Shown here: positions 1,878 to 25,705 of the stretch, piece by piece | How the letters are laid out: every line of letters begins with the position of its first letter | Numbering within the stretch: the first letter of the stretch is position 1 | Assembly: GCA_031316235.1 (NCBI GenBank) | Contig: JALDRA010000001.1 | Location: 3,300,001 to 3,332,000, forward strand | Direction: 5' to 3' | Length of the DNA: 32,000 bases | DNA from: Candidatus Scalindua sp. | GTDB lineage: Bacteria; Planctomycetota; Brocadiia; Brocadiales; Scalinduaceae | Made by a program: the position numbers and the translations under genes | Notes under the pieces: generated by a model | The model's database searches: none | What the model was told of the DNA's origin: nothing | The model's input: only the letters and a program-made list of their open reading frames with translations

Positions 1878-2040
1878 TGATACTAAATTTACCAGTCAGT
1901 ACACTGGTAGAACAAGACTGAAAAAAAATGACATCTTGTTTAGTGAATTAAAAAATGAGTATAATCGCTAATTAAGGTGTGAATCAAATCGAATGTAGTC
2001 AAGAATGAATTTGACCCCTTTACTGCAAGTGAGACTTAAA

Positions 2041-2107
2041 GCGGCAGTTTCAGTAAATATTAAATCGCATGGTTATTGGTGGTTGGCTTCATGCGATTGT
2101 TTGGTGT
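2041..2107. repeat. Hairpin repeat H, copy 1 (AATCGCATG, 18-nt loop, CATGCGATT, plus shared flanks)
   Basis: A perfect 9-bp inverted repeat lies at 2063-2071 and 2090-2098. The roughly 65-nt block recurs at 11088-11151. It supplies the last codons and the stop of the 78-aa ORF. Confidence 0.6.
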
Positions 2108-2309
2108 TTTTATCAGAATTAAGTTTTATTTCAGAAACAATATCTTCAACCGTCATTCCTCTAAAAATTTTATCTTTCATTTCAACATAATTACCTTTTC
2201 CAATACTATACTGATTTATAAACCTTATTGTTCTACTAACTCCTAGCTCTTTAAAAAGTACTTCAAATGCTTCTTTATTTATTTCGTTTGCTGTTGTAAC
2301 TATACTCAT
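2073..2309 (-). CDS. Small protein translationally coupled to the PIN gene (possible antitoxin partner)
   Basis: 78-aa ORF whose start overlaps the PIN gene stop by 4 nt (ATGA). I do not recognise the family. Confidence 0.45.
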   Translation of the reverse strand: MSIVTTANEINKEAFEVLFKELGVSRTIRFINQYSIGKGNYVEMKDKIFRGMTVEDIVSEIKLNSDKNTKQSHEANHQ

Positions 2310-2746
2310 TTTTCATACTCCTCTATAAACTTTAATGGAGAAATAACTTTTGTTTTTAAATTTTTAATCTTTTGAGCTCGCTTAATAAACCTATCGTCGG
2401 TAGTACAGATATAATCTATTTTTTCTATATCTCCTATGGCAAGATGTAATGCATCAATAGCCTTTACGTTTTTCTTTTCAAATTCTTTTGCTCGATTAAT
2501 AATTTTATCAGATAAATTAATATTTTTTGAACTTAGTGATAGAACCTTCAAACCAAACGCTACTCTTTCTGGATCTGGTGTTTTGCTTAATTCCAATTCT
2601 ACTATCGAAGATGCGACCAGCTCAATTTTCTTTTCTTCAATTAATTCTATAATACTGATAACTGCTTCTGCATCTATCCTAATACGAATTTGTGACTTAT
2701 CGTCAAATGGTCTTTGGATACAACAATTATCAAAGTAAATTTTCAT
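2306..2746 (-). CDS. PIN-domain (VapC-like) ribonuclease toxin
   Basis: 146 aa. It has an N-terminal MKIYFDNCCI..PFDD and a C-terminal ICTTDDRFIKRA with acidic residues spaced as in the PIN fold. Confidence 0.7.
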   Translation of the reverse strand: MKIYFDNCCIQRPFDDKSQIRIRIDAEAVISIIELIEEKKIELVASSIVELELSKTPDPERVAFGLKVLSLSSKNINLSDKIINRAKEFEKKNVKAIDALHLAIGDIEKIDYICTTDDRFIKRAQKIKNLKTKVISPLKFIEEYEK

Positions 2747-3192
2747 AATATAACTTGTTTACATCAAGTGATTCATTAAGATGATGTACTTGCTTAAGAA
2801 GTATGTTAGCAAAAAGATATGTAGAAAGGAAACCAAAAAAATGTTGAAACTACATGTAAATTTGCGATTAGCATAATATCAATGGCGAAGCTTTATGAAT
2901 GTTGATAATTGGTTTATGAAGTGATATTTTAATGTTTTGTAATCTGGCAGACCGCAAGAGTACACGCAATAAAAAATGCAATACCAAAGGAGATTGGAAC
3001 AAAAAATAGAAAACTACGATTAGAGAGACTTCGTTCAAACCAGTTAAGTTTCATATCCTTGGGCTGATCTTTCCAGGTGTCCTTCATTTATTGAATATGA
3101 TAGATGGCAAATTGATGACGTTGATCGAGCTTCTGCAGAGCATTTCTGAGCTCGGGGAATCGGGGGACACAATACCTATTTAATTGAGCCGG

Positions 3193-3350
3193 GTAGGGCA
3201 GGCATCGCCTGCCATGTATTTGATTTATGCGGGTAATTTGTGCGGATGTGGGATGGATGAAACGGATAAAGACTGATTGTTTTATGGGGGACCATGCATG
3301 CCTTTCATCATAATGATGGATTTGATTTGGCAGGTGATGCCCTGCCCTAC
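3193..3350. repeat. Inverted-repeat pair flanking about 115 nt (MITE-like or IS-end remnant)
   Basis: GTAGGGCAGGCATCGCCTGCC (3193-3213) matches the reverse complement of GGCAGGTGATGCCCTGCCCTAC (3329-3350). Each arm is itself a small hairpin. Confidence 0.5.
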
Positions 3351-3494
3351 ATACAAATTACTCGGACAGGAAATATACATATATGCCAAAATGTCAAAGA
3401 TTTCTGACATTCGGTAGAACATTTTCTTTACGGTTGTCACCTGCAACCTAAAGGTATACGGACAAAACCGGAGAGCTGGGACTTAATGTTTAAT

Positions 3495-3803
3495 TTACAA
3501 CCACTCAACGTTTACGAGTTTTTCAACTTTTAGATATGCGAGAAGGAAGAAAGAGTTCAACAGGTACTTTTTCTTCATGCTTTTTATCCTCCCTTCTTTG
3601 TCATAATAATGCCCTGGTAAGAGAAGAGAGGTGCCATCTTTGAAGATTCCGCAAAAGATTTCTATCGGTTTCTCCGGAAGCGGCTCTATCACTGCATGGT
3701 TTTTTACAATCGTTAAACTTTCTGCCTTGATTTTATGCCAAGGATGACTCTTATTTTCTTTCGGTATCCTCGTAGTCGAATAACAATAGCTGACGTCCAT
3801 CAA
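3495..3803 (-). CDS. Hypothetical protein (weak call)
   Basis: Open frame only; no recognisable motif or clear RBS. Confidence 0.25.
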   Translation of the reverse strand: MMDVSYCYSTTRIPKENKSHPWHKIKAESLTIVKNHAVIEPLPEKPIEIFCGIFKDGTSLLLPGHYYDKEGRIKSMKKKYLLNSFFLLAYLKVEKLVNVEWL

Positions 3804-3832
3804 AACGTTCAGACTTTGGACTGAAACGATGG

Positions 3833-3944
3833 TATACTCATCTCATATTGGTTTTCGGATAAAATCCGAGATAAATTTGAGCGAGTATACCATCACCAAG
3901 ATCTGGTTTCCGGTAAAACCGGAAACCAGATCGGTTTTAGTATA
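3833..3944 (+). repeat. 112-nt MITE-like element, copy 1
   Basis: The ends are TATACT...AGTATA. Inside is a perfect 15-bp hairpin, GATCTGGTTTCCGGT-AAA-ACCGGAAACCAGATC, followed by GGTTTT. Other copies are at 5046-5157, 9319-9430 and 25594-25705. Confidence 0.8.
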
Positions 3945-4085
3945 AATGAGGTGGTTGATGTTCTCTTACTGACTTATGTTAAAATGTATTTAATGATGAG
4001 TATGTAACTGTTTTTTTGGAGTATGGTAGGATAAAAACTGTTACGGTATAGGTGATTGTCGAGCGTATCCTATGGGAAATACTTA

Positions 4086-4337
4086 TTAAATGTCTTTTCT
4101 GTGAAGAAACCTTACAAAAATGATGCTATTATCAATATGATCTATTCCGATGCGATAGTTACCTGATTTAATCCTGAAGTATGAATCATAGCCTTTAAGC
4201 TTTCTAAGATTCTTTATTTCTTTAATCTTAGTTGCGTCCTTAACTTCTTGAATTATGAGACTAAGACGATTTAATGTTTTTCTATCTTTGATTCTTTTTA
4301 GGTCCTTGGCAAAGCTTTCTTCGAAGAGAGTTTCCAT
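4086..4337 (-). CDS. RelE/ParE-family toxin
   Basis: 83 aa with LRKLKGYDSYFRIKSGNYRIGIDHIDNSIIFVRFLHRKDI, a typical RelE/StbE C-terminal pattern. Confidence 0.8.
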   Translation of the reverse strand: METLFEESFAKDLKRIKDRKTLNRLSLIIQEVKDATKIKEIKNLRKLKGYDSYFRIKSGNYRIGIDHIDNSIIFVRFLHRKDI

Positions 4338-4540
4338 TATTTTCTTTCGAGTAGCTTTGTAATTTGATCTTCTTCTACAAATTTATTCTTTCGTCCTTTT
4401 TTAATTGCTTTACCAAGACCTACTTCCTCTATGGCTTCTGTGACAAGTTCATACAATTCTTCTTTATTTTCATGTAACATCTCAATTAAACTGTCTTTTA
4501 TTAATGATTTAAGCTTATCGTCTTCTCTTTTTGTCTTCAT
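4337..4540 (-). CDS. Antitoxin partner of the RelE/ParE toxin
   Basis: Starting at Met32 of the listed ORF (cat at 4538-4540) gives a 67-aa charged helical protein. Its stop overlaps the toxin start. Confidence 0.65.
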   Translation of the reverse strand: MKTKREDDKLKSLIKDSLIEMLHENKEELYELVTEAIEEVGLGKAIKKGRKNKFVEEDQITKLLERK

Positions 4541-5045
4541 TTCACTATCCCCTATTTTACTTTTATCTTGGGAGCAATTATAACAAAATAATTGCTCCCA
4601 AGATAAAAGTAAATACTGAGTCATGAGGATCACCTGTTAAGATGAAAACTTTAATACATTATCCACACCCTGATTTTTAAAGTTTTTAGTTACGGTTTAC
4701 TATTCCGCTCCAGTCACCCATCCATTCTTCACTACATGATGGGAATTAAAGTGCACTCTTAATTACGGTACGACCACCAAGAATAGAATATTCAGGAGCG
4801 TGATAATTCTCCAGGGCGCTAACTTGCAAAAACTATGGGCTAACGGAAAGTGAAACACTGAAAGTTGAAATATGGTCAGTTTAAACTGTTTTCAGTGAAA
4901 TCAGTCTTCCGTGGGTAAGCTGGATATCGTACCTACCAGTTTTTTTGTACAAAAAAAGCAGGAAAAAGTCGGAATTTGCTTGACAGGTTTTTCGTCTAAA
5001 ATTGCTAGGAATTTTTGTTACCAGAGGTTTAGAATATTTACGCAG

Positions 5046-5157
5046 TATACTCATCTCATACTGGATTTCGGATAAAATCCAAGATAAATTTGAGCGAGTA
5101 TACCTTCACCAAGATTTGGTTTCCGGTAAAACCGAAAACCAAATCGGTTTTAGTATA
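5046..5157 (+). repeat. MITE-like element, copy 2
   Basis: Near-identical to 3833-3944. Confidence 0.8.
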
Positions 5158-5329
5158 TATGTGAGGCAGGCAGGCTAAACAGAGCCGCTAAAAGTGAAAA
5201 CAGGCAGGAGTGTGCACGTTTTTTCAAGTGGCGTAAAGTGGCATTTAAGGGGCAAAAAAATCCCGAAATAAGCACATGGTATAATAGCAAAATTGAATTA
5301 CATTAAAGCTATTTCCCCATGTATCCTAA

Positions 5330-6985: not shown

Positions 6986-7434
6986 CCCTGTGCATATGAT
7001 AGCCTGCTGGTATTCTTTCGAAAGGCAGCAGGTCTTGGGTATGGAAGATCCGGTGCAGTTGTGACCATACATATCTTCAGCAACTGCGCGGAGAAATTTC
7101 ATCCTCACATCATGCCCTTGTTTCTGACGGACTTTTTCGAGAAACGGGAACATTCTACGTCATACCTGATGTTGATTTAAAACCTCTTGAGGAAATTATC
7201 CGTGCAAGTGTTTTCAAAATGCTTAAGGACGAAGGCAAAATAGATGATGATACAATTAACAAGCTCATGAGCTTGAGACATTCCGGCTTCAGTGTGCACA
7301 ATGGAGTAAAAGTTGCGAGAGAAGATGAAAATGGCAAGGAAGCCATTTCTCAATATATTATTCGTAATACCTTTTTTTTGCCAGAGCAGAGTATTTCAGA
7401 GCATAATTTCCAAAAAATATTTGACTTTTGCTAA
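6986..7434 (+). pseudogene. IS91-family transposase remnant (C-terminal third, 1-nt deletion)
   Basis: GAVVTIHIF...KFHPHI, then after a -1 shift at about 7110 HALVSDGLFRETGTFYVIPDVDLKPLEEIIRASVFKMLKDEGKIDDDTINKLMSLRHSGFSVHNG. Confidence 0.55.
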
Positions 7435-9303: not shown

Positions 9304-9318
9304 ACTGAATCACAATTG

Positions 9319-9430
9319 TATACTCATCTTACAATGGTTTTCGGATAAAATCCGAGATAAAATTGAGCGAGTATACCTTCACCAAGATTTGGTTTCCGGT
9401 AAAACCGAAAACCAAATCGGTTTTAGTATA
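9319..9430 (+). repeat. MITE-like element, copy 3
   Basis: Near-identical to 5046-5157. It starts 16 nt after the hdeD-like stop. Confidence 0.8.
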
Positions 9431-9477
9431 TTAACAAGCACGCTGCTTTATGGTACGTCCTGGTAGAATTGCTTTGT
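9429..9477 (-). other. attC-like site, split by intron fragment A (weak)
   Basis: The plus strand reads TATTAAC-AAGCA...TGCTTTGT. The arms AACAAGCA and TGCTTTGT(T) are complementary. It ends in TTGT exactly at the intron 5' end. Confidence 0.35.
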
Positions 9478-9637
9478 GTACGCACAGAATGTGTATGAAC
9501 TAATAGTGTGAAAGTCCCTTTTGGTTTAACCACTGGGTTTCCGTTCAAGTACTGGATAAATGACCCCGGTTGTGTAGAGAAAGTCCAGATACTTATCCGG
9601 GGAGCTCATTTGGCATGCGATATTGCAGTTCATAGTG
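9478..9637 (+). ncRNA. Class C group II intron RNA fragment A (5' end plus distal domain I to J2/3, internally deleted)
   Basis: GTACGCACAGAATGTGTATGAACTAATAGTGTGAAAGTCCC ... GAGAAAGTCCAGATACTTATCCGGGGAGCTC...GCAGTTCATAGTG parallels fragments B and C. Confidence 0.55.
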
Positions 9638-9642
9638 TTTTT

Positions 9643-10096
9643 TTAATCGCCAATTCCTCCGAAAATGTATTCACAGGAACATCCTGAATATATATAATTG
9701 CCCCTTATAACGATAGTCCATCTCAACAGTGTCATTTTTCACTTCACCACCACAAAATGAACAGTCCCCAAATTTATGCATTGCTTCCTCCTTCCTTTGC
9801 CCTTGTTCTTTCATCAATCCATTTGGGCAGTTTAGGTATATAAACAGTTATTATTCTAAGCCATTTTATTAAGGTAAATCCGCAAACTATATGTATTGGC
9901 CGCTCCTCTGAATAGCCGAGAATAAGGCAGCTTGTACCCCTTGGATCATCAGGGTAAACTTCAATTATTTCACAATTAGAAATAACATTTTCAATATCTG
10001 AGTTTTTTATGTCTTCAGCATATCTTTCTTTCTCTGCATAAAACGTATTTCATATTCGTCACTTGAAAATTTTTCTCTGATTTCTCGAATATTCAT
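9643..10096 (-). pseudogene. Decayed duplicate of the DUF4258 toxin / YgiT zinc-finger antitoxin module
   Basis: Aligns with 12095-12662. Differences are a 111-nt deletion between CAGGAACAT direct repeats, a 1-nt deletion in the antitoxin part, and a 1-nt deletion near the toxin N-terminus. Confidence 0.7.
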
Positions 10097-10221
10097 ACAA
10101 TAGAATTTTTGAGATCACTAATCAAGATGTTACCCCAATCTTAGCTTCTTCATGGTTTCTCCAAAGTGTTTCCTTGTCCTATGCAGTCAAGAAGAGACCC
10201 CTTTATGACCCTTTATCTTAT

Positions 10222-10404
10222 TTAACAGTGTGTTATGCTTCCTTTAAGCGTATTTACCCACACGATTATCCGAATACCCATAATTGGTAAACGATTGTTA
10301 AATTTGCAATCCTCTATTTCATCATCATCATCTTTTGTACAGCCAAGTTTTGGATTCATTTTATCTCTTTGTGATTCAGAAAGATAAATCTCCCTCCTTG
10401 TCAT
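10222..10404 (-). CDS. Hypothetical 60-aa protein (weak call)
   Basis: Open frame only. Its stop lies in a GCATAAC box. Confidence 0.25.
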   Translation of the reverse strand: MTRREIYLSESQRDKMNPKLGCTKDDDDEIEDCKFNNRLPIMGIRIIVWVNTLKGSITHC

Positions 10405-10446
10405 TGAGATTGTTTTGGATATGGACTCTAAGTTATCTCTTTATTA

Positions 10447-10504
10447 GGATAACGATCAAACTCACCCGATTACGTAAGAGGTCGGGATGAGTAACCTTTT
10501 AGCT
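10447..10504 (-). other. Candidate attC site
   Basis: The minus strand reads AGCTAAA-aggtt-ACTCATCCCG-(14 nt)-CGGGTGAGT-ttgatc-GTTATCC, 58 nt. It starts 7 nt after the stop of the 160-aa ORF and has one extrahelical T. Confidence 0.35.
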
Positions 10505-10510
10505 GGATTT

Positions 10511-10993
10511 CTATGAAGAGTTTCCCAACCAATCACGTTTTGGTGGCTTAGGAAGTTGCTTACCTTTTTCACTTTCCGTATAAATCTGACAGTCTACTTT
10601 TATTGTTGTCCGCAATTTTGAAAATGCATCTCTGATGTCGTCTGGAGTTTTATCCGTATCACATAGAACCTCCCGCGCAATGTTTAAATCTTTTATTGCG
10701 TTAAATGACAAAAACATCGCTCCCCCTTTATCGTAATACCATTTAACAAGATCCAAATTAAGCTGTCGTCTTTGTTTATCACTAATATTTTTATCGCCCC
10801 AATATTTCGCACTCATTGTGTGCAACCATAGTTTCTGATACGCACTTACGCGCAAGTGGGCGATCTCTTTCAAAAATTCATCACGCGCCTTTCTTTTTTG
10901 TAAGAGCCAATTAAAGTAAAAACCAACAACAATAGCGAGCAGCGCTAGGAGTCCCTTATCAAGCAAAATCTTAAATAGTTCATCATGTTCCAT
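10511..10993 (-). CDS. Hypothetical membrane-anchored protein
   Basis: 160 aa with one N-terminal TM helix (GLLALLAIVVGFYFNWLL) followed by a helical soluble domain. I do not recognise the family. Confidence 0.5.
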   Translation of the reverse strand: MEHDELFKILLDKGLLALLAIVVGFYFNWLLQKRKARDEFLKEIAHLRVSAYQKLWLHTMSAKYWGDKNISDKQRRQLNLDLVKWYYDKGGAMFLSFNAIKDLNIAREVLCDTDKTPDDIRDAFSKLRTTIKVDCQIYTESEKGKQLPKPPKRDWLGNSS

Positions 10994-11087
10994 CTGGATT
11001 TCTCCAATTTGCCAAATAATTACATAGCTAACGCCTCACATACTCAATCACCACCTATGTGTTATGCTTGCAAGGGAGGCTAGAAGT

Positions 11088-11151
11088 GGCAGCCGTAATA
11101 AATATTAAACTGCGTGGTTATTGGTGGTTGGCTTAATGCGATTCGTTATGC
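11088..11151. repeat. Hairpin repeat H, copy 2
   Basis: Shares about 65 nt with 2041-2107 and ends in GTTATGC (11145-11151). A second GTTATGC lies at 11061-11067. Confidence 0.6.
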
Positions 11152-11181
11152 TTATTGTTTTGCCGTAGATTTTTGAGAAGA

Positions 11182-11467
11182 ACTAATAAACTTCATCATG
11201 TGTGCCAATATCAGCTAATAAAATATGGTCTTCCATTTCTTTTGAACTTTTCACGAAGTCAAATACAATTCGCATGTCATAATCTACAGTACATGCCCAT
11301 GATCCTAAAAGTTTTCCTTTTAGCTTATGTGTTTCTAGTTTTGGCGCAAAAGGATCTTTCTGTAATAGTCTTAAGGTGTCCGCTATAACCAGTTATAATT
11401 TTGGATTCTTCTTTAGTGTTCTTTATAACGCTCTTATGAATGTTTTGCCCCAAACAAGGGTCCTCAT
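11182..11467 (-). pseudogene. RelE/YafQ-type toxin pseudogene
   Basis: ..LVWGKTFIRAL*RTLKKNPKL*LVIADTLRLLQKDPFAPKLETHKLKGKLLGSWACTVDYDMRIVFDFV...ILLADIGTHDEVY*. There are in-frame TAA codons at 11422-11424 and 11392-11394. The ATG (11465-11467, ATGA overlap with the antitoxin stop) is one base out of frame; the length is 286 nt. Confidence 0.65.
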
Positions 11468-11685
11468 GGTGTAATCTCTTTCATTATGTCGTCAACTGAA
11501 CCTTTTCTGACTTCTCCTCGACTATATTCTTCTCTCGCTTCCTTTATATTTTCGGAAATTGTTTCTCGTCCTTTTTCGATTAATCGATTTTTCACAATAT
11601 TAATTAGATCCTGCTGCTGATAATCAGGAAAAGATTCTATTATATCCAAGGCTTCCTGAAATGAAACCGACTTCTGAACTTGCAT
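11464..11685 (-). CDS. Antitoxin, apparently intact, paired with the decayed RelE-like toxin
   Basis: Starting at Met41 (cat at 11683-11685) with AGGAGG 7 nt upstream gives MQVQKSVSFQEALDIIESFPDYQQQDLINIVKNRLIE...GSVDDIMKEI, 73 aa. Confidence 0.65.
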   Translation of the reverse strand: MQVQKSVSFQEALDIIESFPDYQQQDLINIVKNRLIEKGRETISENIKEAREEYSRGEVRKGSVDDIMKEITP

Positions 11686-11727
11686 AATTAAGACCTCCTG
11701 TAATAGTACAGTTAATTTAGTTTTAAA

Positions 11728-11786
11728 ACATAACGTTTGCAATTTCGAGGTCGCGTTTTTGCGGCGTTCTTCTCGAATTGCCTTGT
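11728..11786 (-). other. attC site, split by intron fragment B
   Basis: The plus strand reads ACATAAC-gttt-GCAATTTCGAG...CTCGAATTGC-CTTGT. The arms are complementary with one extrahelical T. On the minus strand it ends in GTTATGT. Confidence 0.5.
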
Positions 11787-12090
11787 GTAAGCCCGGCATG
11801 GGCATTAGCTATTGGGCTGAAAGTTCCCTATAGTAAGGAATATCATAACATAAACTATCAGTTGAAGGCAAGGGCAGCATATTGAGGTGATGTCTAAAGG
11901 AAGTGTAAAACAAAGCAGCGAGCTGACGAACAGAAACCTGGTGTAAGGCTAACCACTCAGAGGTGAGTCTGCACAATATGACAAAACCCTGTAGCTAGGG
12001 GGAAACGGTAAAAGACCTGGTTGTTTAGAGAAAGTTCACATACTTATCCGGGGAGATCTTTTCGGCATGCGATGTTGCAGTTCATAGTGG
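11787..12090 (+). ncRNA. Class C group II intron RNA fragment B (domain I to J2/3; degenerate GTAAG 5' end)
   Basis: GTAAGCCCGGCATGGGCATTAGCTATTGGGCTGAAAGTTCCC...TTGAAGGCAAGG...AAAGGAAG...GAGAAAGTTCACATACTTATCCGGGGAGATC...GCAGTTCATAGTGG closely parallels the remembered Oceanobacillus iheyensis IIC intron. No D5/D6 and no RT ORF. Confidence 0.7.
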
Positions 12091-12094
12091 TTTT

Positions 12095-12346
12095 TTAAAA
12101 CGTCAGTTCCTCCGAAAATTTATTCACAGGAACATTAATGGTTTTCTTCCATTGATTCTTTGCTTGGATTCTACGTTCTATTTCTTTCGATACTTTTCCA
12201 ATAAGATATTTTTCCCCACATTGTTGACAAACTCCAGCAGGAACATCCTGAAAGATATATAATTGCCCCTTATAACGATAGTCCATCTCAACAGTGTCAT
12301 TTTTCACTTCACCACCACAAAATGAACAGTCCCCAAATTTATGCAT
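12095..12346 (-). CDS. YgiT-type zinc-finger antitoxin (MqsA N-domain-like)
   Basis: MHKFGDCSFCGG...VPAGVCQQCGEKY has two CxxC pairs. GGAGG lies 6 nt upstream of the Met at 12346. Confidence 0.7.
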   Translation of the reverse strand: MHKFGDCSFCGGEVKNDTVEMDYRYKGQLYIFQDVPAGVCQQCGEKYLIGKVSKEIERRIQAKNQWKKTINVPVNKFSEELTF

Positions 12347-12662
12347 TGCTTCCTCCTTCCTTTGCCCTTGTTCTTTCATCAATCCATTTGGGCAGTTTAG
12401 GTATATAAACAGTTATTATTCTAAGCCATTTTATTAAGGTAAATCCGCAAACTATATGTATTGGCCGCTCCTCTGAATAGCCGAGAATAAGACAGCTTGT
12501 GCCCCTTGGATCATCAGGATAAACTTCAATTATTTCACAATTAGAAATAACATTTTCAATATCGGAGTTTTTTATGTCTTCAGCATATCTTTCTTTTTCT
12601 GCATGAAAACTTATTTCATATTCGTCACTTGAAAATTTTTCTCTGATTTCTCGAATATTCAT
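12339..12662 (-). CDS. DUF4258-family toxin
   Basis: FHAEKERYAEDIKNSDIENVISNCEIIEVYPDDPRGTSCLILGYSEERPIHIVCGF...LRIITVYIP matches the DUF4258 pattern and overlaps the antitoxin start. Confidence 0.65.
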   Translation of the reverse strand: MNIREIREKFSSDEYEISFHAEKERYAEDIKNSDIENVISNCEIIEVYPDDPRGTSCLILGYSEERPIHIVCGFTLIKWLRIITVYIPKLPKWIDERTRAKEGGSNA

Positions 12663-12737
12663 ACAATAGGATTATAAACCTTCTGAAACTTATTTGCTAT
12701 TGCGTTTTTGCCTTTTGTTCATTGTTGTTAATCTGTT

Positions 12738-12820
12738 GCCTGACGATGAAGTAAGAGGCGAGCCTAAAGTCTTGACCGTCAGGCCAGTGCGTTTTTTTGC
12801 GTCGGCTGAATTTTACTTGT
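12738..12820 (-). other. attC site, split by intron fragment C
   Basis: The plus strand starts GCCTGACGA (the intact site starts GCCTAACGA), contains TTTGCGTCGG (intact site TTTGCGTCCG), and ends CTTGT at the intron 5' GTGTG. Confidence 0.5.
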
Positions 12821-13150
12821 GTGTGCCCGGCATGGGCATGATCTAGTGAGCTGAAAGTCCTCTGTACATTTTCCGGTATGTTTAATGACTAAAATTACTA
12901 TCCGAAAGCAAGAGCTAAAGGGTTGCCTGAGTTTGAAGGAAGCCAGAGATCAAATCTGCGAGCCGACCTGCCTGCGTGTGGACGCACAGGCAGGCAGAAA
13001 GGTCATATTAGGATTAGCTTCCTGGCGAGTTCGCACAACATAACGAAGCCCAGTGATTCAGGAGGTAGGGTAAATGATCCGGTTGTGTAGAGAAAGTCCA
13101 CATACTTATCCGGGGAGATCTTTTTGGCGTGCGATGTAGTAGTCTGTATA
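12821..13150 (+). ncRNA. Class C group II intron RNA fragment C (canonical GTGTG 5' end, domain I to J2/3)
   Basis: GTGTGCCCGGCATGGGCATGATCTAGTGAGCTGAAAGTCC...TTTGAAGGAAGCC...GAGAAAGTCCACATACTTATCCGGGGAGATC...GTAGTAGTCTGTATA. A possible D3/D4 stub continues to about 13210. Confidence 0.7.
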
Positions 13151-13211
13151 TTAAATTTACCAGTCAGGAGACTGGTTGAGCAAGACTGACAAATAAAGCA
13201 TCACATCTTGA

Positions 13212-13646
13212 TTAGTCATTATACTCATTTTTGAGCTCACTAATCAAGATGTGACCCCAATCTTGTTCTAGATCGCCAATAAACATTTTTGCACCGTCAA
13301 AAATGGTGTAACCGCTTTTCGTTTGCGTATAAAAGACTTTACGATTTTCAATATCTATTCCCCACGATTCAACCACACCTTTGTAACTACCGCTCATGTA
13401 TACACCAACTATTAATTGTGGAGTGACTTCCTTAAAAGATATCTCTTCACTTCCTGTAACGGAACTTTTATTACCATTGATGCTTATATGGATTTTTTTA
13501 TTGGATAATCCATCTTCATGAATGTTAAATTTGTCAGCCGCATTACTACCATATCCTTTAAATCCAGAGGCTATCCAGCATTCAGCAAATGCATTATTGG
13601 CAATTAATAAAAGTAGCAAAGTGATCGTGATGGAAACAATTTTCAT
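13212..13646 (-). CDS. Secreted hypothetical protein
   Basis: The Met at 13646 is preceded by AGGAG. Signal peptide MKIVSITITLLLLLIANNAFA-ECW. 144 aa, family not recognised. Confidence 0.55.
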   Translation of the reverse strand: MKIVSITITLLLLLIANNAFAECWIASGFKGYGSNAADKFNIHEDGLSNKKIHISINGNKSSVTGSEEISFKEVTPQLIVGVYMSGSYKGVVESWGIDIENRKVFYTQTKSGYTIFDGAKMFIGDLEQDWGHILISELKNEYND

Positions 13647-13888
13647 ATTAGTTCTCCTGATAACGTCACGTATAAGTCGCTGCCACCTATGTGCTATCAT
13701 TAATAACAGAGGTTTGGAGCGGCAGCTTCAAAAATGATAAATCGCTGATGTATTGGCAGTCGACCTTCAGGCGCTTGTTAGGCTATGATGCTATGTAGAT
13801 TCTTCATGGTGTTGTTACAATAATTAGACTTTTTATAACTTATTCGTCCTTATGCTAGTTCCTCAGCCTCTCTTATAGCATCAATATG

Positions 13889-14119
13889 TCATGTTTGTGT
13901 AATTAATCTCGAATGTGCAATCTCTTTGGCATCAGTAGGCCGGACTTGGTTGGCTAGTAATGTGACCACCGCTAACATTGAACCATCGGTAGCTGTAAAT
14001 TCAATCTCATAACCAGCCCCTTTTTTATGAATCAACACGATAGTTCCAATATCTCCGGCTAATAGCCCGTGCTCAGGAACATCGGTTGTAAGAATAACAT
14101 CATCCAATTCTTTAATCAT
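13889..14119 (-). CDS. DUF4926-family protein
   Basis: MIKELDDVILTTDVPEHGLLAGDIGTIVLIHKKGAGYEIEFTATDG fits the DUF4926 pattern. It overlaps the upstream gene by 4 nt. Confidence 0.6.
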   Translation of the reverse strand: MIKELDDVILTTDVPEHGLLAGDIGTIVLIHKKGAGYEIEFTATDGSMLAVVTLLANQVRPTDAKEIAHSRLITQT

Positions 14120-14463
14120 TTTTTCTCCTTTTTTAATGGATGGGCGGTAACGAATCTAGGAGAGTCTCCATCATCATCTATAAACCACACCGTGCGTACA
14201 TTCAATAAAGAACCATCGGGAGATTTCATGAATCCGTCGATAATGTATTTAGTGCCAAATATTGTACGTTTAATACCAGAAATCTCATTTTCTTTTGCGT
14301 GGTGAATCAATGATTTTACTACTTCCTCCCATTTTTCTCTAACAAATCCGAATGACATAAAAAATTTGGCTTTTGCCTTTCCAGCTCTGCTCGAACTTGA
14401 GAGCAGATAGTCCGTAATCTTTTCACTCGGAATTTCAGCATTTTGAACATTTGGTAATTTCAT
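14116..14463 (-). CDS. DUF6883-like protein, partner of DUF4926
   Basis: From Met35: MKLPNVQNAEIPSEKITDYLLSSSSRAGKAKAKFFMSFGFV... (KxxDYLLxxxHxxGxxKAxFF-type motif). Confidence 0.55.
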   Translation of the reverse strand: MKLPNVQNAEIPSEKITDYLLSSSSRAGKAKAKFFMSFGFVREKWEEVVKSLIHHAKENEISGIKRTIFGTKYIIDGFMKSPDGSLLNVRTVWFIDDDGDSPRFVTAHPLKKEKK

Positions 14464-14696
14464 TAGATTCTCATAGTTCTTCCGATATGAAATTATAAGG
14501 ATGTGAAAAGTGAAGTTGCAAGTTAAAAATGTGCTAAATAATTTTTTAGAGAAATAGGGACTCAAGACTATAGGGTTCTTTCAGATTATATCATACTTTA
14601 ATGCCTCTATTATCCCCACATCTTTTTTCACCACTAATCAAAGCGATCCAACAATTCGATCCAGATGCTGGTTAGGTGAACAGTCCAATTCTCAAT

Positions 14697-15032
14697 CTAT
14701 TCCTTGTGCACTATGATGCCGCAGTATTCATTCTCGTTTATTCCCTCGTGAAACCTTCCACGCAACCATCGTTCCGTTCCATCACGTGCGGTGTTGTATA
14801 TGGCGCCGATACCATGTTCTCCACCATCAATGTGAATTTTTACTCTGCATCTCATACACGTAAGCCACAGCCATGTATCGGTTAGATGAGTTTCCATTGC
14901 GCCACTACCACAAGCAGCATGGTAGATGCGAAGTTTTTCGGGTGCAAGATTTTCCTCGTTTTGCATGGCCGCCACTTTGATCACGAAAGGTGGTCTTGAA
15001 TCTTTGCCAATGAGCCAATCAAAAAGTCCCAT
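14697..15032 (-). CDS. Hypothetical 111-aa protein (cassette ORF)
   Basis: AGGAGG lies 8 nt upstream of the ATG. Local GC is higher than the neighbours. It has Cys/His clusters (HAACGSG, CMRCRVKIH). Family not recognised. Confidence 0.5.
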   Translation of the reverse strand: MGLFDWLIGKDSRPPFVIKVAAMQNEENLAPEKLRIYHAACGSGAMETHLTDTWLWLTCMRCRVKIHIDGGEHGIGAIYNTARDGTERWLRGRFHEGINENEYCGIIVHKE

Positions 15033-15047
15033 GTCTTAATCCTCCTC

Positions 15048-15119
15048 GCCTAACGACCAAGCTGTGCGGCGCAAACGAAGCGCAGCGTAGTTTGCGTCCG
15101 AACGAGCGCCTTGTTAGCC
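15048..15119 (-). other. Intact attC-like recombination site
   Basis: The minus strand reads GGCTAAC-aaggcgctcgttcggacgcaaac-(13 nt)-gtttgcgccgcacagcttggtc-GTTAGGC, a 72-nt imperfect palindrome with unpaired bases. The TAA stop of the upstream ORF lies inside the first box. Confidence 0.6.
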
Positions 15120-16016
15120 ATTTGGACCATCATATTTTTGGTCAAATATCATAAATATTCTGCTGTTAACTCTTTCGATCCAATCAAGGATGTTCTGCAT
15201 ATTCTCGTCATAACAGTCTATTCGTTTTAACCAGAGCCTGTATGATTCATTGCAAAATCTGAGTGTAGGCGTGATATATCTTACATCAGCCTCATGATAA
15301 AAGGGATATACAGAGAATGTTGCATCTTCATTCTTTTGAAGGCACCAATCCATAGATTCGTTCCATGAGCCGTGTATGGATTCAGACATCATCCCATAGG
15401 TATATTTATACAAATCCTCATCTGTAATTTCCTTGAATATTTCGAAGAAGGTCTTCCCTTGAAGCCTCCATCGATTTTTCTTTTGTATTTTAAAATCATC
15501 TTCTGTGAAGCCTTCCAACTCCATTTTTTCCTGAACCGATTTTAGTAGGCGCTTCCCTGCCTTTGTCTCAAAAAACCGAGAGCCCTCTTTTAGTTCGCGC
15601 AATATTCTTAATCGGTCTTTATATGAACATTTTCTGTAATCTTCTATGACAGCAGTACCACTTAGCAGTAAATATTCTGCTGTTATTGCTGCTTCGATCA
15701 GTGGCCGTTCTAAGATGCTAATGATTTCAGCGTTATTTTTTTCGTAGTAACCAACGATTTCTTTAAGTAGCTTCCATATCCTAGTTAACAACCCCAAAAT
15801 AGGAGCATCTTCTAGATCGAAACCAGTAGGGTTTCGCTCAATATTACGTATCCTTGTAATACAGTCATAAATCTCCGCCACATCCTTTACGAAAGTACCA
15901 GTAAACTTATTGATATCGTCGAGTGATCTCAAGCTATCTGAGACATAGGCTTCATCATAACTACTGATAATTGTTTCTATTTCGTCCATGCTTGCGCTTA
16001 TTTGTATGGCTAACAT
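15114..16016 (-). CDS. Hypothetical 300-aa all-helical protein (possibly DUF5677-like)
   Basis: Long clean ORF. Contains MSESIHGSWNESMDW and repeated helical segments. The family assignment is only a faint recollection. Confidence 0.55.
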   Translation of the reverse strand: MLAIQISASMDEIETIISSYDEAYVSDSLRSLDDINKFTGTFVKDVAEIYDCITRIRNIERNPTGFDLEDAPILGLLTRIWKLLKEIVGYYEKNNAEIISILERPLIEAAITAEYLLLSGTAVIEDYRKCSYKDRLRILRELKEGSRFFETKAGKRLLKSVQEKMELEGFTEDDFKIQKKNRWRLQGKTFFEIFKEITDEDLYKYTYGMMSESIHGSWNESMDWCLQKNEDATFSVYPFYHEADVRYITPTLRFCNESYRLWLKRIDCYDENMQNILDWIERVNSRIFMIFDQKYDGPNG

Positions 16017-16248
16017 TGTTGATAAGTAGAAAATTTTCTATCTATTGCCTTTATAAAACTGAAATTATTCTATTTATTTATATATACAACCAAGTAAACA
16101 TGGAAAATATTTAATCGAATTTTCCACGTTTCCATGATGGGAAGCTATATCATGGAAATAAATAAGAAATTCAGACCAGATTCTTTTTTACAATGTTTTC
16201 AACTATATGCTATGAAAGCAACTACCTCACTTTTGGCGGTCAGCTGGT

Positions 16249-16512
16249 TTAATTGTGAGATGATTGAATTTCACTGTATTGCTCTACAGGGATAATTAAT
16301 TCTTTTTTTACTTTTTTCCCATGGGAGTGAATAGAAATAAATTCATTTTCGATTTGTTTTAATACACTTCCTTTAAAATACTGTTCTCCACAATATTCAC
16401 ATTGTTCACATGGAACATCATTAACTACAAGAAAATTATCATGATGTTTATAAGTATATTGAACGTGAGTATTTTTGAGATTTTTATTTCCACAAAAATG
16501 ACAAACTTTCAT
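16249..16512 (-). CDS. Orphan YgiT-type zinc-finger protein
   Basis: MKVCHFCGN...VPCEQCEYCGEQYF has the same two-CxxC layout as 12095-12346. No toxin gene is adjacent. Confidence 0.6.
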   Translation of the reverse strand: MKVCHFCGNKNLKNTHVQYTYKHHDNFLVVNDVPCEQCEYCGEQYFKGSVLKQIENEFISIHSHGKKVKKELIIPVEQYSEIQSSHN

Positions 16513-16550: not shown

Positions 16551-16719
16551 AAAAAATCCAGTGGTTAAACTCTAACCGTCTGGTTGAACGAAAACTGCCC
16601 GGATACAAGGCGCGTAAAAATTTTGTAACCGGAGCGTACTCAAGTACGTGAGGATTACAAAATTTTTACAGCAACGCAGTAGGTGGGTAGTTTTCGTTCA
16701 ACCAGATTGGAAATTTTTT
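16551..16719. repeat. Long composite hairpin element L, copy 1
   Basis: TCTGGTTGAACGAAAACT pairs with AGTTTTCGTTCAACCAGA (18 bp). An inner pair is GTAAAAATTTTGTAA with TTACAAAATTTTTAC (15 bp). The right arm encodes the last recN codons. Confidence 0.7.
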
Positions 16720-25553: not shown

Positions 25554-25593
25554 GCTCTTTTACCTGAAAGTGGCTGCAGGATGCAAGCACGTC

Positions 25594-25705
25594 TATACTC
25601 ATCTTATAATGGTTTTCGGATAAAATCAGAGAAAAAAGGGAGTGAGTAAGGTCCTCGGCGCTTTTTGTCCGGGGATACCATTAATCAGGATCTGGTTTCA
25701 GTATA
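25594..25705 (+). repeat. MITE-like element, copy 4 (degenerate)
   Basis: The first 45 nt and the last 20 nt match the other copies. The central hairpin is replaced. Confidence 0.6.

Follow-up and report, generated by a model that had tools for sequence, protein, structure and literature searches.

Does a 32,000-nucleotide stretch of the chromosome of Candidatus Scalindua sp. (assembly GCA_031316235.1, contig JALDRA010000001.1, forward-strand positions 3,300,001 to 3,332,000; here called the window, and numbered from its first letter) hold an integron-type gene-cassette array, and if so, in what state? The question was raised by a prediction made from the sequence alone, which proposed a cassette array with no integrase in the window. 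That proposal is supported here by covariance models of attC sites, by cassette boundaries, by a copy of one cassette inside an integron, and by variation among Scalindua species. We read positions 9429 to 16013 as a decaying chromosomal array of integron-type cassettes that has no local integrase and is pierced by dead group IIC-attC introns, and we put the probability of this reading at roughly 85%. The array lies on the minus strand, comprises ∼8 to 10 cassettes, and is bounded by recN and a DUF308 gene. In the terms of Cury et al. (2016, PMC4889954), it would be a CALIN-type array, that is, a cluster of attC sites lacking an integron integrase. Other contigs used for comparison are designated by L numbers.

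The first step of the argument is a single site, S1.

15048 to 15119, minus strand: intact attC site S1, GGCTAAC...GTTAGGC, identified by two covariance models and by its geometry

The first covariance model, R1, was built from eight attC sites cut from class 1 arrays on clinical plasmids [those of aac(6')-29a, blaVIM-2, arr-3, aacA4, aadB, aadA2, dfrA1, and aadA1], with a structure consisting of canonical R boxes, an unpaired spacer, and L boxes with two bulged positions. The second, R2, comprises 14 sites, five environmental ones among them, and excludes the sites of the window. Both models were scanned across the whole window on both strands, R1 with filters off. S1 was the top R1 match on either strand, aligned over its full length at 36.4 bits (E value of 4e-7), and reached 40.7 bits with R2 (E value of 2e-8). 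As a yardstick, attC sites flanking cassettes beside an integron integrase on a metagenomic contig scored 16 to 20 bits with R1. At an E value of <10, R2 returned four matches, all on the minus strand and within 10.2 to 15.1 kb; four matches on one strand and in one region are unlikely to be noise. The covariance-model check proposed with the original prediction, carried out here with our own models, thus gives one strong site, S1, and a second on the same strand, S6, at an E value of ∼0.09. S1 is an attC site, far beyond chance.

The geometry of S1 agrees with its scores. On the minus strand, the site runs R'' GGCTAAC, AAGGC, GCT, (C), GTTCGG, (A), CGCAAAC, and a loop, and returns as GTTTGCG, CCGCAC, AGC, TTGGTC, and R' GTTAGGC. 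The resulting layout, 7-5-3-(C)-6-(A) on the 5' arm and 6-3-6-7 on the 3' arm with a 7-bp stem, is that of the attC sites of aadA1, blaVIM-2, aacA4, and dfrA1 in box order, in the 5- and 6-nt unpaired spacers, and in the positions of the extrahelical bases. Pairing holds at 6 of the 7 box positions; R' fits the RYYYAAC/GTTRRRY consensus fully, and R'' carries one off-consensus base. An extrahelical G and T on the bottom strand are the hallmark that directs strand choice in attC sites, and both bases, which the original prediction had suggested looking for, are seen in S1. Its description of a 72-nt palindrome with GGCTAAC and GTTAGGC boxes is also borne out by the sequence: the TAA stop codon of a 300-aa open reading frame (ORF) lies inside the first box, and the next ORF brings its own ribosome-binding site, with GAGGAGG and an ATG after the second box. 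Class 1 attC sites share no sequence homology with S1 beyond the consensus boxes. By its loop and stem sequences, S1 falls into another, environmental lineage of attC sites, found also in contigs L037, L038, and L034, where a homologous attC site likewise follows the DUF5677 gene described below. A rule-based scan for RYYYAAC...GTTRRRY mostly caught a 128-nt palindrome after recN, which was rejected as an attC site and is a repeat dispersed in Scalindua genomes; the same scan also recovered S6.

If S1 is an attC site, the gene in front of it should behave as a cassette, with boundaries that recur elsewhere. Two units of the array could be delimited in this manner.

15054 to 16013, minus strand: cassette 1, a DUF5677 gene with its attC site (stop codon at 15114; probable start ATG at 15989, 291 aa)
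10448 to 11031, minus strand: cassette with a 160-aa ORF (10511 to 10993), beginning with TTAGCT; the R'' box of the unit at 10504, AGCTAA, complements this hexamer

The cassette 1 protein matches Pfam DUF5677 (E value of 1.9e-27) and has 1406 homologs. The closest of these are 87 to 96% identical and all 291 aa long, and the true start is therefore probably at 15989. Their hosts are Vibrio (90% amino-acid identity to the Vibrio copy), Pseudomonas (Ectopseudomonas) mendocina, Marinobacter, Shewanella, Halomonas, and a verrucomicrobium. In the P. mendocina contig (L030), homology to the window is confined to 16014 to 15112, from GTTAGCC to the R'' box, and the gene stands there between two attC sites. 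A metagenome contig (L037) is 93% identical at the nucleotide level over 16014 to 15059, with an attC site of the S1 lineage included. In a stromatolite metagenome contig (L035), a 90%-identical DUF5677 copy is the second cassette of a complete integron, flanked by attC sites; the divergent 320-aa recombinase of this integron scores 379 bits on TIGR02249, "integron integrase" (cutoff of 265). For the 160-aa unit, an 84%-identical copy was found in contigs L043 to L045, where the match covers window positions 11032 to 10499 only, with unrelated flanks on both sides, and where homology to L043 starts exactly at the G of S6. The first hexamer of cassette 1, TTAGCC (16013), is the exact complement of its own R'' GGCTAA, and in four units of the array the first hexamer complements the unit's own R'' box at 6/6 positions. 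Such complementarity follows from the circular form of a cassette, in which the R' box is completed by the first six bases of the cassette itself. Judged by these homology boundaries, 16013 to 15054 and 11031 to 10448 are shown to be discrete mobile cassettes, each running from G|TT (the bar marks the crossover point) to its own attC site.

Copies of cassette 1 also differ in their surroundings. The Vibrio maritimus copy lies in an island with a phage-type integrase and no detectable attC site, so not every copy is in an array. Across hosts (L030, L034, L035, L037, and L038), the DUF5677 ORF, at 79 to 93% nucleotide identity, carries at least three unrelated attC bodies, while every copy retains the first hexamer TTAGCC and the R'' box, which overlaps the stop codon. 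The presence of varied attC bodies behind one ORF is relevant to how attC sites arise or are exchanged.

Behind cassette 1, the candidate attC sites that carry no insertion range from a scoring site to little more than a box.

11026 to 11133, minus strand: attC site S6, R' GTTAGCT, with a model core at 11026 to 11067 and a longer form from AGCCAAC at 11133
10447 to 10504, minus strand: attC site S7, AGCTAAA, 5-nt spacer, 9-bp stem, 6-nt spacer, GTTATCC
10220 to 10303, minus strand: weak attC-like site S8, ATTTAAC...GTTAAAT (R2, 9.4 bits, E value of 3.3)
13701 to 13783, minus strand: attC remnant S3, with a perfect R'' GCCTAAC (13783 to 13777) and a decayed 3' half
14626 to 14676, minus strand: degenerate attC remnant S2, in which only an R''-like box, ACCTAAC, is recognizable

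S6 scored 15.5 bits with R2 (E value of 0.09) and 13.5 bits with R1 (E value of 0.31). S7 is supported by its hairpin, whose stem carries one extra T on the canonical arm, and by the homology boundary of the 160-aa cassette; it goes unscored by the models because its R'' box ends in A rather than C. At S8, GGATAAT at 10271 complements the preceding TTATCC. Within the array, the hexamer TTAGGC finds its complement only in the GCCTAAC of S3; no convincing partner was found for this R'' box, and neither model scored the site. S2 likewise drew no score from R1 or R2. Among the four weaker sites originally listed, 10447 to 10504 holds, by homology boundary and geometry; 13708 to 13783 and 14630 to 14677 reduce to R'' boxes; and 4002 to 4046, an imperfect palindrome, is scored by neither model. 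Most of the downstream attC sites are degenerate, and the array is a decaying one and not a clean one; the initial description was right about its integron type and overstated its condition. We read an age gradient along it, with a recent cassette at the recN end and older, decaying ones behind, which is the order expected if insertion takes place at the front.

Decay by mutation is one part of the picture, and interruption by introns is another. At three further sites, the plus strand passes directly into the 5' end of a group II intron.

12738 to 12820, minus strand: attC remainder S4, on the plus strand GCCTGAC...ACTTGT and then intron, with an internal short site GCCTGAC...GTCAGGC (12738 to 12784)
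11728 to 11786, minus strand: attC remainder S5, on the plus strand ACATAAC...GCCTTGT and then intron; R' GTTATGT
9429 to 9477, minus strand: last attC remainder S9, on the plus strand TATTAAC...GCTTTGT and then intron, abutting a dispersed repeat (9315 to 9434)
12821 to 13264, plus strand: intron stub c3, starting GTGTGCCCGGCATGGG, with domain I and part of domains II/III and a hairpin at 13201 to 13254 (RF02001, 60.1 bits at 12916 to 13105)
11787 to 12094, plus strand: intron stub c2, from domain I to the start of domain III, abutting the stop codon of an MqsA-like gene (RF02001, 69.5 bits at 11876 to 12043)
9478 to 9640, plus strand: intron stub c1, with an internal deletion, identified by repeats and by alignment

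These sites are half sites because group IIC-attC introns inserted into them. The original prediction had listed all three half sites, which are present, and missed the cause; the CTTGT end it ascribed to them holds for two, the third ending in TTTGT. As attC sites the remainders score poorly: S4 gave weak minus-strand model matches of 9.3 and 8.8 bits, and S5 gave a weak R1 match of 8.3 bits with a DNA fold z-score of -2.2. The introns are clearer. After each half site, the plus strand reads GT(G/A)..GCCCGGCATGGG, the 5' end of a class C intron, and the matches to RF02001 (Rfam group-II-D1D4-3) lie on the plus strand, antisense to the cassette genes. The junction YTTGT|GT(G/A)(T/A)(G/C)CC is found on the plus strand in c1 to c3, in a Klebsiella pneumoniae intron, and in Methylocalor, and the corresponding sequence of intact S1 is CCTTGT|TAGCC, which places the entry point of the introns in the R'' box. 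In a blastn search, an intron fragment matched 344 plasmids. Stub c3 aligns with the complete intron of K. pneumoniae plasmid pCRKP-1215_1 (L023; RF02001, 134.9 bits), and the match to the window is the 5' end of that intron. Its ltrA gene is on the plus strand, directly downstream of dfrA12-orfF-aadA2 on the minus strand. In L023 (3140 to 5190), the attC half 5' of the intron is not that of aadA2, so that the two flanks are of different origin.

All of the stubs in the window and in L003, a contig of a related Scalindua species with three similar stubs that are also antisense to ORFs, are truncated at the 3' end to ∼160 to 440 nt, with the 3' two-thirds gone. The stubs showed no RF01998 segment in Rfam, no similarity to ltrA by tblastn (E value of ≤1), and no domain V-like sequence by blastn-short and pattern searches. 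Without a reverse-transcriptase ORF or domains V/VI, they are relics, not functional introns. RF00029 was dropped as a test for domain V because the complete K. pneumoniae intron also falls below its gathering score, and its absence therefore says nothing for class C introns. We also rejected the idea that S6-type sequence represents intron domains V/VI read backwards, as it bears no resemblance to domain V of the K. pneumoniae or Oceanobacillus iheyensis intron. A metagenome scan with the intron 5' pattern found nothing. In the literature, group IIC-attC introns are described as entering the bottom strand of attC in antisense orientation relative to the cassettes and parting a gene from its attC site (PMC3001079). 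The stubs resemble such introns (S.ma.I2 and Kl.pn.I-type; PMC3001079) in their class C domain I and in their insertion after TTGT, where they separate a cassette gene from most of its attC site; they differ in that the copies in the window and in L003 lack the reverse-transcriptase ORF and catalytic domain V. A different group II intron (RF02012 and RF00029) with a truncated maturase ORF, on the ORF-sense strand, occupies 15698 to 16806 of L004, in the equivalent variable region of another Scalindua species.

Might the introns have built these units instead of invading them? By the model of Leon and Roy, group IIC-attC introns reportedly join genes to attC sites in cassette formation, and the gene-intron-attC units of the array could accordingly be intermediates of cassette genesis, in which introns joined resident genes to attC sites. 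An R'' pentamer is missing from the gene side of each stub, and c2 abuts the stop codon directly, which would suit such an origin, as would the attC halves of different origin around the K. pneumoniae intron and the different attC bodies behind the DUF5677 ORF in different hosts. The stubs, however, retain no part required for splicing or reverse transcription, their ends toward the gene vary from copy to copy, as deletions would give, and the model is itself unproven. We regard cassette genesis as very improbable here and keep to introns that arrived late in existing attC sites.

The introns also bear on a more prosaic explanation, in which the locus is an ordinary hypervariable island rich in toxin-antitoxin genes, its palindromes are terminators or elements like repetitive extragenic palindromes (REP), the introns chose terminator hairpins, and the resemblance to attC sites is coincidental. 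Terminator-like hairpins are indeed targets of class C introns, the window holds dispersed palindromic repeats of two other families (16579 to 16706 and 9315 to 9434), and most of the candidate sites go unscored by the models. Coincidence would nevertheless have to produce 36 to 41 bits and exact attC geometry at S1, three independent comparisons in which cassette boundaries fall at G|TT and the R'' box, and a copy of cassette 1 beside an integron integrase; and the introns target the R'' box itself, as the sequence of the intact site shows (CCTTGT|TAGCC). For S1, S6, and S7, the ordinary-island explanation is effectively refuted, and for the locus as a whole we find it scarcely credible.

If the units are integron cassettes, where is the integrase? 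The original statement that the window holds no tyrosine recombinase gene stands: a Pfam search found no Phage_integrase domain in window ORFs of ≥100 aa, and tblastn with IntI1 and an environmental IntI found no match at an E value of <5 in the window or in contigs L001 to L004. An intI gene or pseudogene was detected neither in the window nor, in three related species (L002 to L004), at distances of up to 10 kb from recN. The layout of a complete integron is thus absent from the window, the position expected for intI being occupied by recN and an 87-aa gene. RecN itself is 78 to 86% identical to its counterparts in the three Candidatus Scalindua genomes, and in the four species the recN side is syntenic and the cargo downstream is wholly different in each. 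The comparison of relatives suggested with the original prediction therefore reveals a locus that is anything but invariant. At the equivalent place in L004, an attC site directly follows the first small ORF (19 bits, E value of 0.024). A metagenome scan with RecN returned no Scalindua contig.

Between the 87-aa gene and cassette 1 lies a segment that may bear on how such turnover came about.

16014 to 16248, minus strand: conserved noncoding leader between the 87-aa gene and cassette 1, ending ...TTATCAACAATG, with the junction G|TT at 16014/16013

The leader is 84.6% identical to L003, and homology stops exactly at the G at 16014; after this crossover G, L003 continues with CATCCG, not TT. 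Its last 31 nt (16014 to 16045) also occur in contigs L038 to L042, upstream of the same cassette and near thiC. These contigs are HIP1-rich, with many GCGATCGC motifs and repeated short sites ending ACTAAACG|TT, suggesting that they are cyanobacterial. Because integrase-mediated movement should not carry such sequence, the shared 31 nt may represent an attI-like core or a long attC tail, and the leader is possibly an attI-like region or the relic of an ORF-less cassette. Two adjacent hairpins built on the motif TTTCCATG/CATGGAAA occupy 16087 to 16160 within it, one of which drew a chance microRNA match in Rfam. Both are conserved in L003 and are possibly protein-binding sites.

One may accordingly ask whether the array still works as a cassette store, with an integrase encoded elsewhere in the genome, the leader as an orphan attI-type landing site, and cassettes still being gained and lost. 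The complete difference in cargo downstream of recN among four species with a syntenic recN side, none of which has an intI gene within 10 kb, is what such a store would produce. The leader common to the window and L003, with homology ending exactly at the crossover G, would fit as well, as would the recurrence of 31 leader nucleotides upstream of cassette 1 in unrelated contigs and the recent look of this cassette, with its intact attC site and a marine metagenome copy of 93% nucleotide identity. Mobilization of CALIN cassettes in trans has been judged plausible (Cury et al. 2016, PMC4889954). Against a working store, L003 departs from TT after the crossover G, L002 has no leader, the mostly decayed or intron-split attC sites and the pseudogenes do not suggest active shuffling, and a promoter scan of the leader found no sigma-70-like site. 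On balance, continued operation seems rather unlikely. More doubtful still is a stronger form, in which the locus downstream of recN would be a living capture site, with the leader (∼230 nt) as an orphan attI for a distant integrase and, as a corollary, the intron stubs kept as suppliers of outward promoters. Outward promoters are known in the 5' part of group IIC-attC introns. A promoter scan gave 19 matches versus 24 expected by chance, and the two promoter-consensus matches inside stubs (11871 to 11842 and 13247 to 13218) are leads only. If true, a living capture site would explain full cargo turnover at one fixed chromosomal position.

We favor the decaying array, for which the following history can be proposed. 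Its cassettes would each have consisted of one or more promoterless ORFs plus an attC site, inserted by an integron integrase recombining the folded attC bottom strand at G|TT. The DUF5677 cassette nearest recN would be the youngest, given its intact canonical attC site and near-identical copies in other phyla, and the cassettes behind it, mostly toxin-antitoxin pairs and small ORFs of unknown function, would be older, their attC sites decayed and with pseudogenes and a scrambled duplication among them. Group IIC-attC introns, which home into the attC bottom strand after TTGT, against the direction of cassette transcription, invaded three of the attC sites, and each intron has since lost its 3' two-thirds and is dead. 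The insertions were presumably carried out by an IntI that has since been lost or acts from elsewhere in the genome, and the array may now be largely immobile, with toxin-antitoxin modules helping to retain it.

Several observations weigh against this reading. The array has one strong attC site; the second reaches an E value of only ∼0.09 with a purpose-built model, and the rest fall below threshold. For the CALIN criterion, we applied at least two attC sites on one strand within 4 kb. S1 and S6 lie on the same strand, 3981 nt apart, and cluster in this sense, only marginally so because of the E value of the second site. The single bulged base of S5 sits on the noncanonical arm, and S9 is poorly paired (z-score of +0.4). 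In L003, which represents the nearest relative for which a long contig exists, the one attC candidate, between the two ORFs, is weak. Single-strand minimum-free-energy z-scores of the candidate sites are unremarkable; we set these aside because minimum free energy discriminates attC sites poorly.

Compared with known systems, the locus resembles CALINs (PMC4889954) in its co-oriented, promoterless ORFs between attC sites, the absence of intI nearby, cassettes mostly of unknown function, the absence of an antibiotic-resistance cassette, and a typical size of ∼8 to 10 units. It differs in that one attC site is intact and the others are degenerate or split and in that several congeneric species carry the array at the orthologous place, downstream of recN, with entirely unlike cargo. 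With sedentary chromosomal integrons, such as the Vibrio superintegron, it shares a chromosomal location, toxin-antitoxin cassettes among ORFs of unknown function, and a cassette in common with Vibrio, but it has no adjacent intI, few cassettes, and heterogeneous attC sites. Sedentary integrons are set apart by >19 homogeneous attC sites fixed in a species; here, ∼8 to 10 units are found, with heterogeneous and mostly degenerate sites.

The remaining genes of the array are the following.

14697 to 15032, minus strand: cassette 2, a 111-aa ORF with its own GAGGAGG ribosome-binding site, the unit beginning with TTAGGC at 15053
13889 to 14565, minus strand: DUF6883/DUF4926 gene pair, a putative toxin-antitoxin module (Pfam E values of 3.4e-31 and 9.8e-20)
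13212 to 13700, minus strand: ORF of a 162-aa protein, which has a signal peptide and probably starts at 13645, the final 14 codons extending into intron stub c3
12095 to 12662, minus strand: DUF4258/MqsA-like zinc-finger pair, a toxin-antitoxin cassette (Pfam E values of 2.3e-19 and 1.7e-7), the unit beginning with TCAGGC at 12743
11180 to 11685, minus strand: antitoxin ORF (11464 to 11685) and a RelE/ParE-like toxin pseudogene (∼11180 to 11478) with three in-frame stops
9671 to 10142, minus strand: decayed, frameshifted DUF4258/MqsA-like duplicate, fused at 10105 to 10142 to a fragment of the intron hairpin region

The minus strand carries every credible ORF between 16512 and 9671, and the original description of short minus-strand ORFs rich in toxin-antitoxin genes holds: the array genes include DUF6883/DUF4926, encoded by ORFs that share 4 nt; two occurrences of DUF4258 with an MqsA-like zinc finger, one of them decayed; and the antitoxin with its RelE/ParE-like pseudogene. 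The 111-aa ORF of cassette 2 found no match in Pfam. In the duplicated DUF4258/MqsA-like cassette, 300 nt are 99% identical to 12252 to 12551, and the flanking repeats are 89 to 97% identical. Positions 10105 to 10142 were at one point taken for a fragment of the 162-aa gene, an assignment that was dropped; the intron hairpin region fits better because the same sequence is present in L003 without the 162-aa gene. The extension of the array to 16512, as first proposed, does not hold: the 87-aa YokU/MqsA-like gene (16249 to 16512) is kept beside recN in another Scalindua species (L002) and therefore belongs to the backbone, outside the cassette array. GC content is 0.36 to 0.39 across 9.4 to 16.5 kb, compared with 0.43 to 0.49 in the flanking core genes, and the short-read contigs of the source samples end at both array edges.

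Elsewhere in the window, Pfam identified genes for phosphoglycerate kinase, RecN, a hydroxylamine-oxidoreductase-like multiheme cytochrome, and an NnrS/ScdA fusion. The 128-nt palindrome mentioned above (16579 to 16706) is near perfect, overlaps the recN stop codon, and resembles REP elements or miniature inverted-repeat transposable elements; short-read contigs end there. Further copies of this dispersed repeat lie in L002 (3608 to 3717 and 11696 to 11823) and L003 (13 to 133, 4793 to 4909, and 11696 to 11821). A second dispersed repeat of ∼120 nt with a strong hairpin occurs at 9315 to 9434, 3833 to 3944, 5046 to 5159, and 25593 to 25701, with several copies in L004; two of its copies come immediately after the attC-like palindrome that closes a cassette run (9429 and 4002). 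From 1889 to 4700, the minus strand appears to carry another piece of cassette array, in a more advanced state of decay, with a PIN toxin and antitoxin (2073 to 2746), ParE/RelB (4086 to 4633), the palindrome at 4002 to 4046, and a copy of an S6-type attC 5' half (2020 to 2087) joined to a fourth intron stub (1889 to 2023), which is 79% identical to 17274 to 17414 of L003. A 563-aa ORF at 53 to 1744 combines a DDE_5 transposase domain with an N-terminal part matching the Druantia DruA and Mom families. Finally, an IS91-family transposase fragment (6989 to 7434) lies upstream of pgk, and a full copy is found after the recN region in L002 (13163 to 14557), pointing to rearrangement of the neighborhood between species.

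Integrons have been reported in Planctomycetes (PMC4889954), so the phylum is not new, and the locus adds no new principle to the understanding of integrons. Our literature search found no report linking integrons with Scalindua or anammox (anaerobic ammonium oxidation) genomes, and the array places integron-type gene capture in anammox bacteria, which, as Scalindua, are slow growing, uncultured, and ecologically important. The ∼90% protein identity of cassette 1 across Vibrio, Pseudomonas, and Verrucomicrobia is direct evidence of a common marine cassette pool. The locus also displays the life history of an array, with a fresh cassette at the front, decay behind, invasion by introns, and presumed retention by toxin-antitoxin modules. 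With four species that have different cargo at one array position and no local integrase, it offers a tractable case for the question of whether such arrays are serviced in trans.

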